From an uncultured Acidobacteriota bacterium (GTDB lineage Bacteria; Acidobacteriota; UBA6911; RPQK01; JAPXNP01), in assembly GCA_963777605.1 (NCBI GenBank), contig CAVZRV010000017.1, positions 1 to 15,606 on the forward strand: a stretch of DNA of 15,606 nucleotides, read 5' to 3'. The first letter of the stretch is position 1. Each line of letters begins with the position of its first letter. Below the pieces are notes generated by a model. The model was not told where the DNA came from and ran no database searches. It saw only the letters and a program-made list of their open reading frames with translations. Position numbers and translations under genes: made by a program. Below, one piece after another: positions 523 to 10,100 of the stretch.

Positions 523-1883
523 TCAGTCTACGCGGTGAGCCGCGAATTCGCGCAGTCCCATCAGGCTGAAGCGTAGTTCATCGACCGTTCCCCCCTGGCT
601 GCGGAGGAACGTGATCGTGGCCGGAAATCCAACCGGATGAAATACCGTCTCCGAGTCCGCAAACAGCTCCTCTTTCCCATTCTTGCTTTCTCCCAGGAGG
701 TGGCCGTCTTCGAGGGTGATGGTGAAAATTTCGCCGGACTCGCTGGTGATCTGTGCCGGGGCATCAAGGCGATAGCGCCCCACGTAGGTGCGCAAAACGG
801 ACGCATCGACCTCAACGGGAACTGGAACCTGGTCGGGAGCCAGCTTTCATCCAGGAAAATGGCTGCAATCGCGTGGGCCAGATCGGCGGCGCTGGGCAGG
901 GGCCCGGGCGGACGCATCCCGATATTGCTCAGCACCACAACACTGAAGTGCAGGTCCGGATATCGAGCGATGAACGAGTTGAACCCGGTGATGTCGCCTC
1001 CGTGGGAGATTTCACGCGCACCGCGAAACTCGGTGATCATCCAGCCGAATCCATAGGGGGCCTTTCGGCCATCGTTTAACTGTACCGGCGTCAATGCTGC
1101 CTCGATACTGGCGGGACGAAGCAGGCGATTGTCATACCAGGACTGGTCCCACAGATAGAGATCCTCGACCGTAGAATGCAGACCGCCTGCGGCATAGGCG
1201 TCTTCCACGGAATGGGGAGGCGTCGCCCGAAGACCATTGCCGTCGTTCAGGTAGCCCTGGGCTCGCGAGGAGACCGATGCCGCCGAGTCGAGACCCGTGT
1301 TTTCCATCATCAGGGGCTTGAAGATGTTCTCATCCAGAAACACGGCATAAGAGAGGCCCGAGACTTCCTCGATGAGTTTGCCCAGCACCATGTACCCCGT
1401 GTTGCTGTAGTTCAGCCGATCCCCCGGGCTCGCGTCGAGAGGCATCGCGTTCGCCTGATCATAACTGACAAAGTCCGGCAAGCCGGAGGTGTGGGTGAGC
1501 AGCTGTCGGACCGTGATATCGCTGTGTGAGAAGTCGGGCAGATAAGCCTGAACCGGCTGATCGAGATTGATCCGACCTCGCTCGCTCAAAATCAGGACGG
1601 CGGCAGCGGTGAACTGTTTGGTCACCGATGCGATACAGACCCGGGTGGTCGGGGTCAGGGGCACCTCTTTTTCGACGTCTGCCAGGCCGTATCCCTGCTC
1701 GTACAGCACCCGGCCGTTTTCGGTAACCAGGATCGCGGCTCCCGGTGCCGTTGCGCCAATCGTCTGAAACAAGGCATCTACTTTCCGGGCAGGGGAATTG
1801 TCCATCACCGGAGCCGCCCCCAGAAAGGAAGACAGCAGCATCGTGAAGGCTGGAAACAGAATCGCGTGTCGGTCGCAGTGCAT
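523..1883 (-). CDS. Secreted serine hydrolase (beta-lactamase class C/PBP-like fold) with a DUF3471-like C-terminal domain, split by a 1-nt frameshift near 845-847
   Basis: RBS GAGGAG 5 nt before ATG at 1883. Signal-peptide-like N-terminus. Motifs SxxK (ASVTKQF), LLTHTSGL, YSN (NYSNTGY) and HGG (SHGGDITGF). Adding one A at GAA-AG-CTG joins it to ORF 523..795 (FLDEKLAPDQVPVPVEVDASVLRTYVGRY...). Confidence 0.88.
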
Positions 1884-2195: not shown

Positions 2196-2786
2196 TCAGG
2201 TGCTCGAGGTGATATCGTCATGGTCCACGTGATCGGTGTGGTCGTCGTGCCAGTCACAGTGAAACTCCCGATGGGTCTGATCCGTGTGATCGGAATGTGA
2301 CTTCGGCAGATCGACATGCCGAGGGTTGGCTTCGTCCGTATGATCTCCGTGATCGTCCCAGTGCCGGCCTTTGTCCGCATGATCGTCCACATGGTTCGGG
2401 TGAGGGGGCACGGGATCGGTGCCCCGGCTGTCCGAATGATAGTCCAGGTGGGGGTCGCGATAATCGGCGTGGGGAAATCCCGAGTCGTAATGCGGACTAC
2501 CGACATTGGTCTGGTCGGCATGCCAGTCAACGTGAGAACGCCGGGCCGACGGGAGATCGTGACCGGGAAAGCCGGCTATCCCCTCGATTTCCCCCCGTAA
2601 TCCCACTTCGTGGAAAAATAGGTGGAGCGCGAACAGGTCCAAACCGGCAAGGGACTTCGGATCGACCCCCACCTTTTCCCAGGTCTCCGGCGCGACGCGC
2701 CCCAACACCTCCTTGGTGCTGGGCGGACCGATCGAATCCTGGTGTTGGCCGGAATCGGCGTGATCTTGATGTTTGCTGTCTTTCAT
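2196..2786 (-). CDS. His-x-Asp repeat protein (196 aa), putative multi-core RiPP precursor or metal-binding protein
   Basis: Strong RBS AAGGAGG lies in the last codons of the upstream gene, and the ATG is 3 nt after its stop. 22 of its 27 His residues have Asp two residues later. Precursor role is inferred from context. Confidence 0.85.
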   Translation of the reverse strand: MKDSKHQDHADSGQHQDSIGPPSTKEVLGRVAPETWEKVGVDPKSLAGLDLFALHLFFHEVGLRGEIEGIAGFPGHDLPSARRSHVDWHADQTNVGSPHYDSGFPHADYRDPHLDYHSDSRGTDPVPPHPNHVDDHADKGRHWDDHGDHTDEANPRHVDLPKSHSDHTDQTHREFHCDWHDDHTDHVDHDDITSST

Positions 2787-2789
2787 TCG

Positions 2790-4289
2790 TTAGCCTCCTT
2801 GATGGACTCGAGCCCAGAGGACCGAAGGGGCGGTCGCTTCGAGGGGCAGGAAACCCGCCTTGCGCGCCAGAGACGCAAGGCCCCCTTCCCGCTGCAGCCA
2901 GTCTCCATAGGCATAGAGCAGTAGTTTCGCCGAGCTGCTTTGCAGCCACGATCTGAGTTTGGCGCCCTCTCGATCCTCTACCTCCAGAAGCCTGCCCGGC
3001 GTCAACAAAATGATCGAATAGCGCTTTCCGGACCAGCTCTTTGCGAGTTTGAAGAGGTCGCCGCAAAAAAAACGGTCTGCGTCATCGGGCAGCAATCGTC
3101 CGGCGTGTGCGACGGCCTTAGGGTTCCGGTCCACGCCGAAGGGCTGGATCCGAGGATTCAAGCGCCGGACCGACGCCAGAAGCGCCCCATTGCCACAGCC
3201 CAGATCCAAGACCGCTCCTTCCTGCTGCTGTTCCACCGACCGGCAGATCGCCTGGACGATGGGATGGTGGGCCGTCTTCATGGCCTGCAGTGAAGGGAAA
3301 CCGTTATCTTCGAAATACCACGAGGGGGGCTTCTCGTTCGGGCTCTGGTGGGAAAGCCCTTTCTGAAAAGAGGGCGAAACGGTGAGGGGGCGCTTGCGGG
3401 GAGCCTGGTAGGGAAATCGAATGCCGTCGGCACCCTCTTCCGGGTACCCTTCTCCCCGCCTCCTGACGACCAGTTTGGTGGGCGTGGCGTCGGTGCGGAC
3501 GGTTACCTTAACCACAGGAGTCTTGATCTCCGCGATTCCGTGCAAAGCCGACCACTCAACCGGCCAGGAAAGCATCTCCAGGAGCCGGTCCATCTCCGCC
3601 TCGTAACCGAGCTCGTTGCCCACTTCGCGGAGCCTCTGGGCCACTTCCACCGTCGACGGACAGCGGAAACTGCAAGGGAGATGAAACACCGCCCGAACTC
3701 CCAGCCAGCGCAGGAGAATGTTGGCTTCGGGAGGGCCGGAAAGTTGGACCGCCTGGTCAGAAAATTCAGCATCCGGCGTATTGGCTGCCATCGACCAGGT
3801 GGTATCGAGCCACCGTTCGCGAATCCAGACTCGTTCAAAGAACCGGCGACAGCAGCGAGGGTAGCCCAAAAGTTCTCCCAGTGCGCTCTGGTCATTCTTC
3901 GTCCAGAATTCCTGAAACTTCGCCAGGGCGTCAATCTTCCCCGCCACCACCCGGAAGGTAAAAGGCTTCCCGGGCTCAGGTGGTTCGAGAACGGACGAAT
4001 AGGGGAGATCGGTGGCTGCCCCCTTGGCCAGGGGGAGGACGCTCAGGCCGAAGGAAGCCAACTGCGCGCTGTAGTCGGGGAGCCGCTCGGGCGAGACGCT
4101 CTGCAGGGCGCAAGCTCGAACCTGTTCTGCCACGGAGCGCCATTCGAGTTCGGACCACGCTCGAGAAATGCGTTGGATTTCAGGTTCCCACTTCCGCCGG
4201 GCCAGATCGCTGACCCAGCTGTAGCGGGTGAACTCGGGAAGAGTTGCCGGCAGCCGGTCGATGCCCGCCGCATCGGAACCGGACGGCAT
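2790..4289 (-). CDS. Two-domain protein: uncharacterised N-terminal Cys/His-motif domain plus C-terminal class I SAM-dependent methyltransferase
   Basis: Motif I VLDLGCGNGALL, then GVDRNP and GDLF in the C-terminal part. The N-terminal part has LLGYPRCC and HLPCSFRC. The start is uncertain: ATG 4289, ATG 4346, or fused to the rSAM. The first ~200 aa of the 700-aa ORF call overlap the rSAM in another frame. Confidence 0.82.
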   Translation of the reverse strand: MPSGSDAAGIDRLPATLPEFTRYSWVSDLARRKWEPEIQRISRAWSELEWRSVAEQVRACALQSVSPERLPDYSAQLASFGLSVLPLAKGAATDLPYSSVLEPPEPGKPFTFRVVAGKIDALAKFQEFWTKNDQSALGELLGYPRCCRRFFERVWIRERWLDTTWSMAANTPDAEFSDQAVQLSGPPEANILLRWLGVRAVFHLPCSFRCPSTVEVAQRLREVGNELGYEAEMDRLLEMLSWPVEWSALHGIAEIKTPVVKVTVRTDATPTKLVVRRRGEGYPEEGADGIRFPYQAPRKRPLTVSPSFQKGLSHQSPNEKPPSWYFEDNGFPSLQAMKTAHHPIVQAICRSVEQQQEGAVLDLGCGNGALLASVRRLNPRIQPFGVDRNPKAVAHAGRLLPDDADRFFCGDLFKLAKSWSGKRYSIILLTPGRLLEVEDREGAKLRSWLQSSSAKLLLYAYGDWLQREGGLASLARKAGFLPLEATAPSVLWARVHQGG

Positions 4290-4317
4290 CGCGTCTGTCC
4301 GGTTGTCCAGCTTTTCA

Positions 4318-5565
4318 CTATCTCCGATCGTCCCAGTGATCCCCATGACCGTGTTCCTTGCTCGGGCTGGCCGCCCCCTGGTGTGGGCGGAGGACCGTCT
4401 CGTAGTAAGCGGTTTCCAATTTCTCCAGTGCGGCGGACATACTCGTGTTTTGCCCTTCGCTCCAGCATCGGAGAAACTCCTTTTCCATAGCCGTCCGGAC
4501 GGGGTGCGCCGAGATCGGCATGCGGCCTGCCTCGAGAGCCTCTTCTTCGAGTTCACGGAAAAGCGTCTTCCAGATCTCGCAGTGTTCGGTTCGGTTCCGC
4601 CAATCTCCATCGATGGCGGTTCCCGGGCACTGACCCTTGCACATGAGAAAAAAACGACAGCCCTGGCAGCCCCCCCACTCCTGGGGCGTCTGGTAGAGAG
4701 CCAGATAGCGTTCGAAGCCGGGCGAGTCCGATTTCGTGAAGTCGACCCCATCCTTATTGGTCCTGCCGCAATTGCTTCTTTGTCCCCTTCCCTCGACGCC
4801 TCGAACCGCCCGCGTCGTGTTCGGATCGCAGGCCATCCAGACGCAGGTGGCGGCGGCGTCCTGGGCGAAGAGCAGCTTCTCCATGTCTTCAAAGACGTCG
4901 AAGCGGATGAACTTCAGCTGTTTCTGAAGTTCCCGGAAGCTCCGAAGGGCCCGGATATTCTCTTCCGGCGTCAAGGCGTATTTGCGCCGAATGGCTGCAC
5001 TCTCTACCTCCAGCAGATGGAGGCGGATGGAACGGACTCCGATCGACTCCAGGTAAAGGACCCATTGCTGGAGTCGGGGCAACTTTTCCGAGGTCGCATT
5101 CGTGCGATGGAGAGTGAGAATCAGGCTGGGAGGAATCCTCTCGGAGCAGAGGCGCTCGATGGCCTGCTCCGTCTTCTCTGTGGCCTGACGGGTGCGCTCC
5201 GGAGAGCCGGCCCAGCGGGCGTCGTTGAGTGCTCCGGGGCCGTCCACCGAAATCCCTACGTGCACGCGGTACTTCTTGAACAACTCGATATGCCGGTCGG
5301 TAATCAGGGATCCGTTGGTCTGCACGCCATTGGAGCCGAAACGCTCGAGCCCCCAGGCCCACAGATCTTCCAGATCCTCGACGGGAACCATGAGAGGCTC
5401 CCCGCCGAAAAGTGTGAAGGGGCCGCCTTCGGTCTCGATGGCCTCCTTCATCGCCTCCAAATCGTAGGAACGGGTCAGGTTGCCGGCGTCTCTCTGCAGG
5501 TTCTGGTAACAGTACTGGCAGGCAATGTTGCAGTTGACGCCGAGCGGCCGGAGTTCGATGCTCAT
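4318..5565 (-). CDS. Radical SAM/SPASM-domain enzyme (415 aa), putative peptide maturase
   Basis: RBS AAGGAG 5 nt before ATG at 5565. CxxxCxxC (CNIACQYC), GGEP, QTNG and ISVDGP motifs. C-terminal Cys set CVWMAC...C...CQGCRFFLMCKGQC...C includes the SPASM Cx2Cx5Cx3C signature. Confidence 0.95.
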   Translation of the reverse strand: MSIELRPLGVNCNIACQYCYQNLQRDAGNLTRSYDLEAMKEAIETEGGPFTLFGGEPLMVPVEDLEDLWAWGLERFGSNGVQTNGSLITDRHIELFKKYRVHVGISVDGPGALNDARWAGSPERTRQATEKTEQAIERLCSERIPPSLILTLHRTNATSEKLPRLQQWVLYLESIGVRSIRLHLLEVESAAIRRKYALTPEENIRALRSFRELQKQLKFIRFDVFEDMEKLLFAQDAAATCVWMACDPNTTRAVRGVEGRGQRSNCGRTNKDGVDFTKSDSPGFERYLALYQTPQEWGGCQGCRFFLMCKGQCPGTAIDGDWRNRTEHCEIWKTLFRELEEEALEAGRMPISAHPVRTAMEKEFLRCWSEGQNTSMSAALEKLETAYYETVLRPHQGAASPSKEHGHGDHWDDRR

Positions 5566-5663
5566 CTGCACTCCTTGTCGAAACCGGAGCCCCGAGCGGA
5601 CGGGTTCCGACGTACCTGTTCCGTCTAAGAATAGTTGACAGAGGTAGTAATTTAGTTACCGGA

Positions 5664-5692
5664 ATTCTATAGGCGAGCAAGAGCCCTGTCAA
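5664..5692 (-). promoter_or_regulatory. sigma70-type promoter for the rSAM cluster
   Basis: Minus strand reads TTGACA (5692-5687), 17-nt spacer, TAGAAT (5669-5664), about 100 nt upstream of the rSAM start. Confidence 0.75.
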
Positions 5693-5912: not shown

Positions 5913-7193
5913 CAGTAGTGTCCGGGGAAAATAAAAGGGGCTAGACGGCTTGAAGAGCCTCCTGTAGTTATTGGCTTGTCCAAACCCAACAAATAAGGAG
6001 GGTTCAAGCCGTGGCTCATGAGAATACCATCTTCAGCCAACTTTTCCACTTCATTCCTCGACATGTTTTTGCGCAGGCCGTCGACCGCTTTCGGGCGGAC
6101 CGATATAGCAAACGCTTTTCAGCCTGGCAGCAGTTGCTCGTGCTGCTCTACGCACAGATCTCGGGCAAGGACTCGTTGCGGCCAATTGTCAGTGGCTTGG
6201 GAGCCCACGGACCCCGCCTCTATCACCTGGGGCTGTCGAGTGTCTCCCGTTCCACACTGGCCGACGCCCTCAGCCGCCGTCCGGCCGCGTTGTTCGAACA
6301 CCTGTTTTATGCCGTTCTCGCCCGGGCCCAGCATCTGGCGCCGCCCCACAAGTTTCGCTTCAGAAATCCCCTGTATTCGCTGGACTCGACCACCATCGAC
6401 CTCTGCCTGAGCGTCTTTGACTGGGCTCGCTTTCGCCGACGAAAGGGTGCCATCAAGCTCCATTTCCAGTTGGACCACCGCGGGCATCTGCCGGTCTTTC
6501 TGGTTCTGACCGAAGGCAATGTCCATGACATGACCGTCGCTCGGAATCACTTTCCTCCCCAACCCGACAGCATCTACTGCTTCGATCGGGCCTATCGGGC
6601 CCTCGACTGGTGGAACCAATTCCAGCGCTGTGGCGCTTTCTTCGTGACCCGGGCCCTGGCCAATCAAAGTTTCCGGGTTATCGGACAGCACGCCTCGCCG
6701 ACTGCTCCTTCGATCCTCGCCGACGAGTTGATCGAGCTCGAAGGACAGGTCTCCCATCGGAAATACCCCCATCCCCTGCGCCTGATCACCTTCCAGGATC
6801 CCGTCACCGGCCGCACCTACCGCTTCCTCACCAACCACTTCCGTCTCGCCGCCACCACCATCGCCGAGATCTATCACCAGCGCTGGCAAATCGAGACCTT
6901 CTTCCGTTGGGTCAAGCAGAATCTCAAAATCAAAACCTTCCTCGGCACTTCCCGCAACGCCGTCCTGGCTCAGATCTGGGTGGCCATGATCTACTTCCTG
7001 CTGCTGGCCTACTTCCGTTTCCTCAGCCGCTCCCCCTTCTCCCTGACCGCACTCACCCAGCGCATCGCCGACACCCTCATGCACCGGGTCAACTTGCTCG
7101 AAGTCGTCGCTCTCGCCCGAATTCCGCCTCCTCCGGATCGACCTTCTCCTCAGCTCTCCCTGTTCCCTGCTTGAGGTTTACCGGACAGCACTG
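5913..7193 (+). mobile_element. IS4-family insertion sequence (1281 bp), apparently intact
   Basis: Terminal IRs CAGTAGTGTCCGG (from 5913) and CCGGACAGCACTG (to 7193) match at 11/13. A perfect 9-bp TSD AGCCTGGGC lies at 5904-5912 and 7194-7202. Confidence 0.95.
6011..7174 (+). CDS. IS4-family DDE transposase with DUF4372-like N-terminus
   Basis: RBS TAAGGAGG. Motifs SLDSTTIDL, FDRAY and YHQRWQIETFFRWVKQNL (YREK). Uninterrupted 387-aa ORF. Confidence 0.95.
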   Translation: MAHENTIFSQLFHFIPRHVFAQAVDRFRADRYSKRFSAWQQLLVLLYAQISGKDSLRPIVSGLGAHGPRLYHLGLSSVSRSTLADALSRRPAALFEHLFYAVLARAQHLAPPHKFRFRNPLYSLDSTTIDLCLSVFDWARFRRRKGAIKLHFQLDHRGHLPVFLVLTEGNVHDMTVARNHFPPQPDSIYCFDRAYRALDWWNQFQRCGAFFVTRALANQSFRVIGQHASPTAPSILADELIELEGQVSHRKYPHPLRLITFQDPVTGRTYRFLTNHFRLAATTIAEIYHQRWQIETFFRWVKQNLKIKTFLGTSRNAVLAQIWVAMIYFLLLAYFRFLSRSPFSLTALTQRIADTLMHRVNLLEVVALARIPPPPDRPSPQLSLFPA

Positions 7194-9253: not shown

Positions 9254-9913
9254 TCACGGGCTTGCGACGTAGAGTTTGTTGTAGATTTCAATGGTTCCCC
9301 GGGAGAGGACAACTTTCCCCTGTCTTTCGAAATGCTTGAGAAGTCGACTAATCACCTCTCGAGACGTGCCCAGGTCATTCGCAATCTCCTGGTGGGTCTT
9401 TCTTAAAGTGTTCTCTTCAGATTTCTCAATCAGGTAGTCGATGAGCCGCTCATCCATCTTTCCAAACGAAATCTCTGAGACGAGCATCATGATCGAGCTC
9501 ATTGCTTCGTTGATCCGAGCATAGATGAAGGCGCGCATTTCTTCATAGTCCCCAATTAGTTTTCGAAAATGCACTGCAGGAATGAGAATGATCTCGGTCT
9601 CGGCGGTGGTGGCCGCATTAGCCAATAATCTTGTGCCGGATAAAAGACACGAGGCGTTCAGGACGCAAATATCTCCGACGCCGATCTCATAGAGAGTAAT
9701 CTCCCGATTGGAGGTCCCCATTTTGAATATTCGTTTCCCACCCGACAAGATGAGGACGAACTCATGGCACTTGTCGCCCTCGAGCTTGACGAGCAAGTCG
9801 GTCGGCAGTTTTTGATATCGAGCTACCGCGAGAAATCTATCTACTAAAGACTGAGGCGCCTTTTTGAAGAAGGGGAAGGCCGCTAAGAGGCGGTCCTTGA
9901 GAGTGCTTTCCAT
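9254..9913 (-). CDS. Crp/Fnr-family transcriptional regulator
   Basis: cNMP-binding-like domain (EGDKC...ILSG...REITLYEIGVGDICVLNASCLL) plus Crp HTH (THQEIANDLGTSREVISRLLKHFERQGKVVLSRGTIEI). Start is 9913 or 9970. Confidence 0.93.
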   Translation of the reverse strand: MESTLKDRLLAAFPFFKKAPQSLVDRFLAVARYQKLPTDLLVKLEGDKCHEFVLILSGGKRIFKMGTSNREITLYEIGVGDICVLNASCLLSGTRLLANAATTAETEIILIPAVHFRKLIGDYEEMRAFIYARINEAMSSIMMLVSEISFGKMDERLIDYLIEKSEENTLRKTHQEIANDLGTSREVISRLLKHFERQGKVVLSRGTIEIYNKLYVASP

Positions 9914-10100
9914 GAAGTCATCAATCTCCCGTCGAGAACTTTTCAGCTGGCTTACGAGCTGCCAGTTCATTCTATGTTCAAGTGGTTCACACCGTATTAG
10001 TTTGCATCTTGGAGGCCACTGGTTACACAAACCATCAAAATCTTGTCCTTTTGTTCTGAAGGAGCCCGTCTCTTAAAGTTGCCCTTGGAGAATTCGAGCG

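Follow-up and report, generated by a model that had tools for sequence, protein, structure and literature searches.

The window analysed here, the whole of a 15.6-kb contig (15,606 nucleotides) from the 6.7-Mb, 53-contig metagenome-assembled genome of an uncultured Acidobacteriota bacterium, carries three packed, co-oriented genes on its minus strand. They encode, in order, a radical S-adenosylmethionine enzyme of the SPASM type (rSAM), a protein in which a cysteine-motif partner domain is fused to a methyltransferase, and a protein rich in His-Xaa-Asp (HxD) triplets. We propose, with slightly better than an even chance of being right, that these genes form one operon that modifies the repeat protein post-translationally, by crosslinks of the triceptide type followed by methylation. 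The parts of this proposal differ in strength. The case for the HxD repeats being the substrate of the rSAM is strong, because the association of rSAM, partner and repeat protein is kept across phyla; the crosslink chemistry (His to Asp) we hold with moderate confidence.

The repeat protein contains 27 His and 32 Asp residues, and 22 of the 27 His are used in exactly 22 HxD triplets, the number given in the initial annotation. Composition-preserving shuffles (20,000) had a mean of 4.4 HxD (standard deviation 1.8, maximum 12), and among the 59,890 stop-to-stop frames of at least 60 amino acids in the whole genome this is the sole one with more than nine. Is the frame a real gene? High-GC DNA yields many long spurious open reading frames (ORFs), and the HxD protein has no family match, so one could suppose a non-coding frame, or an unrelated low-complexity protein that happens to follow the methyltransferase gene. 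This is very improbable: the frame is unique in the genome, it has a strong ribosome-binding site (an AAGGAGG box 7 nt before its ATG, the gene lying 3 nt after the stop of the partner-methyltransferase gene) and coding-like GC3, and the pairing is met again in other phyla but not in control loci (see below). Codon-position GC is gene-like in all three genes, with that of the HxD gene (GC1/2/3 = 0.71/0.41/0.69) resembling its neighbours. Searches of NCBIfam with HxD proteins and the giant proteins described below gave no families for any of eight proteins, and the ESM Atlas gave only 'hypothetical protein' clusters, below 0.9.

The arrangement of the genes (Table 1) fits a single transcription unit. 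The start of the partner-methyltransferase gene overlaps the end of the rSAM gene by about 29 nt, and the promoter-like site is the sole minus-strand match to TTGACA-17-TAGAAT between positions 1800 and 6100, a region with two matches counting both strands versus 0.6 in shuffles. The ORF coordinates and this site thus bear out the initial annotation of one promoter-like site ahead of three tight, co-oriented genes. The rSAM gene could begin at a GTG (4318-5571) or at an ATG (4318-5565); the ATG is the more likely start, because AAGGAG precedes it and a 415-residue database entry agrees.

Table 1. Features of the rSAM, partner-methyltransferase and HxD-repeat genes, in coordinates of the window
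Feature	Position	Strand	Remarks
Sigma-70-like promoter	5664..5692	-	TTGACA-17-TAGAAT, 11 of 12 matches, about 100 nt upstream of the rSAM start
Radical SAM/SPASM enzyme, 415 aa	4318..5565	-	stop codon within the coordinates
Two HxD triads (HGD, HWD; residues 407-412) on the rSAM C-terminal tail	4330..4347	-	read from the translation
Partner-methyltransferase protein, 518 aa	2790..4346	-	ATG at 4346
Partner domain, about 345 aa	3312..4346	-	conserved CC...C-x3-C and His; distant DUF483 relative
Class I SAM-dependent methyltransferase domain, residues about 360-518 plus stop codon	2790..3269	-	fused to the partner domain
HxD-repeat protein, 196 aa, 22 HxD	2196..2786	-	proposed substrate; no Pfam or NCBIfam family
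HxD-dense core, residues 85-191	2214..2534	-	19 triads, spaced 3-15 residues

Does the pairing of this rSAM with repeats extend beyond the one contig? A scan with rSAM peptides, taking one genome per species, located 60 loci through the rSAM alone. Thirty encode close homologues (46-65% identity, with one archaeal sequence at 32%) and make up the family set; the other 30, encoding distant rSAMs, served as controls. The family ranges across Acidobacteriota, Gemmatimonadota, Myxococcota, Bacteroidota, Nitrospinota, Bacillota, Proteobacteria and a haloarchaeon, its hosts including Nitrospinaceae, Paenibacillus, Pseudoalteromonas, Plesiocystis and a Halorubellus. The partner domain directly follows the rSAM in 27 of the 30 family loci (L017 and L020 lack it, and in L028 the contig ends there), and in six (L008, L009, L010, L024, L025 and L027) the two share one reading frame. 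A co-oriented ORF with 6-36 HxD is found in 16 family loci, and a density of at least four HxD per 60-residue window is reached in 16 of the 30 family loci versus none of the 30 controls. The carriers are either small proteins (106-319 aa) or larger ones of 865-1404 aa in which the repeats fill the last 60-180 residues; in these tails the triads recur with a period of about 7-8 residues (22 triads in L005). Four further giant proteins (L023, L025, L027 and L028) end in short F/H/Y-x-D tails, and four from one clade (L024, L026, L029 and L030) end in tails of the PHIK, PYIK or PHIR type, that is, H/Y/F-x-K/R; overall the tail-bearing giants are about 870-1860 aa long. Aromatic-x-(D/K/R) repeats are thus present on a co-oriented neighbour in 24 of the 30 loci, and no alternative substrate is conserved across these loci. 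In a second, independent sample of 30 metagenome family loci, many of them on very short contigs, 14 have at least six aromatic-x-D per 40 residues on the rSAM strand.

The repeats therefore obey a wider rule than HxD: the first residue of the triad is invariably aromatic (H, Y or F) and the third is D or K/R, commonly with a Pro in front. The rSAM homologues do adjoin HxD-rich ORFs or tails, as the initial annotation required of its proposal, and its view that triplet repeats accompany the rSAM stands; its picture of an HxD precursor needs widening, the motif being aromatic-x-(D/K/R) and the usual substrate elsewhere the tail of a giant protein. The repeat proteins share a motif and no alignable sequence (a tblastn search of the 30 family loci with the HxD protein as query gave no match at E<=1e-3), so the association rests on motif counts. 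The rSAM itself may be a further substrate: tails with at least two HxD (2-8 triads) occur in 9 of 46 homologues and on the window enzyme as well (10 of 47 in total).

Residue 3 of the repeat appears to be mirrored in the enzyme. Asp-type enzymes all have H at rSAM position 153 and R/K at 268, and mostly N at 270; in the clade with K/R tails these three positions are T/G, L/N and D. The charges complement those of residue 3, as reported for D214 of HtkB.

Pfam and PHROGs searches of the HxD and giant proteins gave weak tape-measure-like matches only (for one giant protein, and for the K/R-tail group in PHROGs). Within their C-terminal 250 residues, ahead of the aromatic-x-K/R tail, the four proteins of the K/R group have many tandem helical repeats of about 18-19 residues with a G-Y-x-A-x-x-V pattern. 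No homologue of the giant proteins was found in the genome that contains the window. In Halorubellus litoreus (L033:28-5660) a 319-residue protein with 31 HxD lies just before the 32%-identical rSAM and its partner, and directly after genes matching phage baseplate wedge (phrog_6, 194 bits), baseplate and tail-fibre families; on these matches it is a repeat protein within a phage-tail-like cluster of an archaeon. Small HxD proteins of three other loci (L004:8757-9491, L013:5225-5884 and L014:1500-2408) have an N-terminal twin-arginine-like signal or hydrophobic segments and, to judge from these, could be exported after modification in the cytoplasm.

Several related loci contain genes of the kind associated with peptides that are made on the ribosome and modified after translation (RiPPs). 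An aKG-HExxH peptide beta-hydroxylase (TIGR04267) is encoded in 7 of the 30 (57-79 bits versus a cut-off of 40), one of which also has PqqD. In L010 (442-918) a 158-residue protein composed of two NHLP-leader-like halves (94.8 bits versus a cut-off of 50.9) is encoded directly upstream of the rSAM; L028 (5504-6007) has a similar 167-residue protein in the same place, at 44.5 bits (below 50.9). Neither protein has HxD repeats. Of the 30 family loci, one has PqqD and one an NHLP leader, and for a RiPP recognition element (RRE) or PqqD in the window the outcome was negative: NCBIfam and Pfam scans of the window's proteins found no PqqD or RRE. A variant neighbourhood is seen in L018 (2039-5989), L012 and L019, where a 965-976-residue protein whose N-terminal domain is of the tetrapyrrole-methylase type (43 bits) and a 238-267-residue 2-oxoglutarate-oxygenase-like protein precede the rSAM; in L018 a 96-residue ORF lies between the two.

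His and Asp are classical metal ligands, and metallochaperones carry His-rich tails much like those of the rSAM. Might the HxD protein and tails then be metal-binding elements that store or deliver Fe, Zn or Ni for the Fe-S enzyme or the Cys4 partner, or an independent metal buffer, with the rSAM modifying something else? That no leader is visible on several of the repeat proteins would suit such a role. We nevertheless regard it as improbable, as the PYIK/PHIK-type tails of the sister clade would be poor metal sites and yet keep the aromatic-x-basic form, no other substrate is conserved in the 30 loci, and the peptide hydroxylase, PqqD and NHLP genes of related loci point to peptide modification.

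The enzyme belongs to the radical SAM superfamily (Pfam Radical_SAM, PF04055, 49.5 bits versus a cut-off of 29.5). The cysteines of its CxxxCxxC motif (C12, C16 and C19) are invariant in 31 of 31 sequences, and C241, C246, C266, C300, C303, C309, C313 and C329 are kept in at least 30 of the 31. No Pfam SPASM model matches at E<=0.01; a SPASM motif is legible all the same (C300-x2-C303-x5-C309-x3-C313), and the cysteines for two auxiliary 4Fe-4S clusters are present. Fifty-five NCBIfam models match weakly, none at its cut-off. The best are mostly cyclophane maturases (AmcB, DynA, YhhB and GrrM/OscB), and the curated models of known three-residue cyclophane-forming enzymes fall short as follows (bits/cut-off): AmcB, 81/425; YhhB, 56/445; GrrM/OscB, 51/310; FxsB, 41/370; XyeB, 40/450. 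A sulfatase-maturase identity was considered and rejected (TIGR03942, the anaerobic sulfatase maturase anSME, 74.4 bits versus a cut-off of 349.45); the rSAM lies in no sulfatase-maturase or cofactor family, either of which had been named beforehand as a result that would count against a RiPP enzyme. Searched against solved structures, the family profile finds its best relatives in anSME (64 bits, over the full length) and ChlB, a triceptide synthase (61.6 bits), and the same two are closest to the AlphaFold2 (AF2) model (pLDDT 83.5; against the anSME fold, E 1e-11, TM 0.60-0.70). Public entries for the homologues carry only the names 'radical SAM protein' or 'uncharacterized'. The genome has a second, distant rSAM on another contig (C31; 32% identity over 152 residues).

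The chemistry proposed for this enzyme follows that of the triceptides, which are defined by an aromatic-X2-X3 motif (PMC11499958); such motifs are present in the HxD protein of the window (as HxD) and, as H/Y/F-x-D/K/R, beside the rSAM in 24 of the 30 loci. The consulted portions of the triceptide papers describe several relevant linkages: YxdB joins Tyr-C3 to Asp-C-beta and HaaB joins His-C2 to Ala-C-beta (PMC11002830), HtkB joins His-C2 to Lys-C-beta (PMC11499958), and YhhB joins His or Tyr to Arg-C-beta (PMC11002830, PMC11499958). Because aromatic-spacer-Asp/Lys/Arg is the defining motif and has these precedents, we propose C-beta abstraction at Asp and addition to His C2. The rSAM would act together with the partner domain, a presumably obligatory Cys4/His component, on the HxD triads of the 196-residue protein and probably also on the two triads of its own tail. 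The 5'-deoxyadenosyl radical would abstract the C-beta hydrogen of residue 3 (Asp), and the resulting Asp radical would add to the aromatic ring of residue 1 (C2 of His), giving a three-residue cyclophane with a loss of 2 Da per triad, up to about 22 times along the array. The fused class I methyltransferase would then tailor the product, with the Asp carboxyl or a His nitrogen as our guess for the methylated group. The partner domain might dock the substrate or provide a second catalytic metal site. The HxD triads on the rSAM's own tail (a candidate substrate in cis), the aKG-HExxH tailoring enzymes in related loci, the full set of SPASM cysteines, the mostly cyclophane-maturase NCBIfam matches and the charge-matched differences at 268 and 270 support this scheme.

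The same enzyme and substrate could be joined by a different radical reaction, such as anSME-like two-electron oxidation at C-beta, epimerisation, dehydrogenation, or a crosslink of another register or atom (C-N or C-O). Here anSME is the best solved match by both profile and fold, it nearly equals the best cyclophane model in NCBIfam (74 versus 81 bits), no curated cyclophane family cut-off is reached, and the Cys4 partner domain could redirect the reaction. We nonetheless think it less likely, since the repeats have no Cys or Ser target of the anSME kind, the only constants across repeat subtypes are the aromatic position 1 and the D/K/R position 3 of the triceptide pattern, and aKG-HExxH hydroxylases co-occur with the family. 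The one characterised, ChlH, needs a preformed cyclophane: according to PMC12636437, it hydroxylates Asp and His residues once the ring is in place on the peptide.

A number of observations weigh against crosslinking of the triceptide type. The rSAM is far under every curated cyclophane-maturase cut-off (40-81 bits versus 310-450), and anSME fits it about equally well, both in sequence (74 bits) and in structure, so the chemistry is not settled by homology, which cannot by itself separate cyclophane formation from anSME-like or other radical reactions. Six of the 30 loci have no aromatic-x-(D/K/R) array: L010 and L021 are cut by contig ends, none is seen in L012 or L032, L019 is counted with them, and L018 has just the 96-residue ORF, which combines 3 HxD with long VD/ID repeats. 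The triceptide precursors known so far are short peptides with a leader, whereas several of the repeat proteins here begin with triads at residues 3-8 and therefore have no leader, and many other arrays are tails of proteins of about 870-1860 aa. No described triceptide pathway offers a precedent for the partner domain, and nothing about its function could be drawn from its fold. His/Asp-rich tails can simply bind metals. Finally, the K/R clade is monophyletic, so that the covariation at 268/270 counts as one evolutionary event; no K/R-type enzyme was present among the 30 new metagenome loci in which an independent test of it was sought. A three-chain complex prediction (rSAM alignment, partner alignment and HxD protein) gave 0.38, 0.00 and 0.00, was run without controls, and was used neither way.

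The partner domain is a regular companion of the rSAM. Its near-invariant residues are C165, C166, C225, C229 and H269. It is a distant relative of DUF483 (PF04467) and no clear member: the window domain scores 16.9-18.1 bits and does not reach the gathering score of 25, one homologue (L031) reaches 26.5 bits, and 7 of 23 homologues match at E<=0.01. The AF2 model is confident (pLDDT 86.6), and Foldseek found no match to it in the PDB at E<=0.001. A wide VIA structure search returned 2guk, of unknown function (Z 8.8, rmsd 3.4, 104 aligned residues), and NleE (Z 5.5, rmsd 2.9, 98 aligned), both matches spanning only residues 58-179 of the model; the domain's profile found nothing below E 0.2 among PDB sequences. 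The domain is widespread: in a library of 1.84 billion proteins its profile matches 3,153 representatives (50%-identity clusters) at E<=1e-3, and 1,056 at the stricter E<=1e-30. The genome of the window has no second copy. Its methyltransferase fusion is more variable. In the window the methyltransferase matches are both marginal (Pfam Methyltransf_31, 27.6 bits versus a cut-off of 27; MTS, 26.7 versus 23; residues 367-417), and the fusion is found in 85 of the 150 best partner-domain representatives but in only 4 of the 30 rSAM loci. The initial annotation was thus right that a methyltransferase is fused to a Cys domain, and needs amending in that what is conserved as a core is the rSAM together with the Cys-motif domain, the methyltransferase being optional. 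Another natural fusion occurs in L085 (1827-3665), where an rSAM with a 4-HxD tail runs on into a segment with a methyltransferase-like glycine motif.

An IS4-type transposase (window 6011-7174, plus strand; DUF4372 and DDE_Tnp_1, 92-93 bits) is encoded divergently about 320 nt upstream of the cassette promoter. This, together with rSAM identities of 60-65% across many phyla, suggests that the cassette moves horizontally. On the other side, a beta-lactamase-family protein (561-1883, minus strand) matches Pfam over residues 35-322 of 440 only, and its last 115 or so residues are Arg/Ser/Pro-rich, resembling a frame change or wrong stop. GC content drops to 0.49-0.52 between 8500 and 10000, compared with 0.56-0.62 elsewhere, a dip spanning the gene of a Crp-family regulator (9254-10030) and the first part of that of a DUF7482 protein.

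A literature search found no description of an HxD-repeat/rSAM system or of the partner domain, though similarity networks in the triceptide papers may already include the cluster as an uncharacterised node, and the June 2026 release of NCBIfam has no model naming one of the three proteins; both results agree with the initial view, which did not recognise a characterised pathway here. The system looks like rSAM maturation of a triceptide-like kind in which the enzyme family, the partner, the classes of substrate and the motif are new. More tentatively, and with somewhat less than an even chance, we suggest a widespread stapling at the level of whole proteins, in which the new rSAM/SPASM family and its Cys4 (DUF483-like) partner would install dozens of His/Tyr/Phe-to-Asp/Lys/Arg cyclophanes in leaderless repeat polymers, at the C-terminal ends of giant proteins (1000-1800 aa) and on the tail of the enzyme itself, a charge code at 268/270 would set residue 3, and the methyltransferase would cap products of the Asp type. 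Once modified, the HxD arrays could serve as rigid elements, pre-organised to bind metal or to play a structural part. If crosslinking of this type is confirmed, triceptide chemistry would reach beyond short leader-bearing peptides to whole proteins and polymers of up to 36 motifs, with the participation of an accessory domain that has had no prior study, and His/Asp peptides with many staples, potential metal binders, would come within reach. The cassette is a compact three-gene test case, and R268/N270 versus L/D is a candidate specificity switch for engineering.

How does the system compare with those already known? It resembles the triceptide synthases (XyeB/XncB, GrrM/OscB, FxsB/MscB, YxdB, HaaB, YhhB, HtkB and ChlB) in having an rSAM/SPASM enzyme with no N-terminal RRE, substrates with tandem aromatic-X-X triads in which position 3 is D, K or R, and co-occurring aKG-HExxH hydroxylases; one of them, ChlB, is among the two best structural matches. 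It differs in that the rSAM is under all the family cut-offs and is paired with a DUF483-like Cys4 partner domain, in that a methyltransferase is fused to over half of the nearest partner domains, and in its substrates, which are leaderless repeat proteins (about 110-320 aa, up to 36 triads) or giant-protein tails. No report of a His-to-Asp link was found in those portions of the triceptide literature that were covered. With anSME it shares the best full-length profile and fold match, the SPASM architecture with two auxiliary clusters and the lack of an RRE; unlike anSME, it has no sulfatase gene and no Cys/Ser target motif nearby, and its neighbourhood is a different and conserved one.

The His-Xaa-Ser system pairs the repeat protein HxsA with the rSAMs HxsB and HxsC. 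The likeness lies in a His-x-X triplet repeat protein beside rSAM/SPASM enzymes; in our system, however, residue 3 is Asp (or K/R) instead of Ser, there is one rSAM and not two, and the partner domain and methyltransferase are specific to it. No Hxs model is among the best 25 of the 55 NCBIfam matches of the rSAM. The His-Xaa-Ser system is mentioned in PMC9062424. The fused rSAM and aKG-HExxH pair ChlB/ChlH offers a further parallel, in that 7 of the 30 related loci combine an rSAM with a TIGR04267 hydroxylase and that the residues hydroxylated by ChlH, as given in PMC12636437, are Asp and His, those of the HxD triad. Unlike ChlB/ChlH, the window has no HExxH gene, and elsewhere in the family the hydroxylase is a separate gene, unfused to the rSAM.

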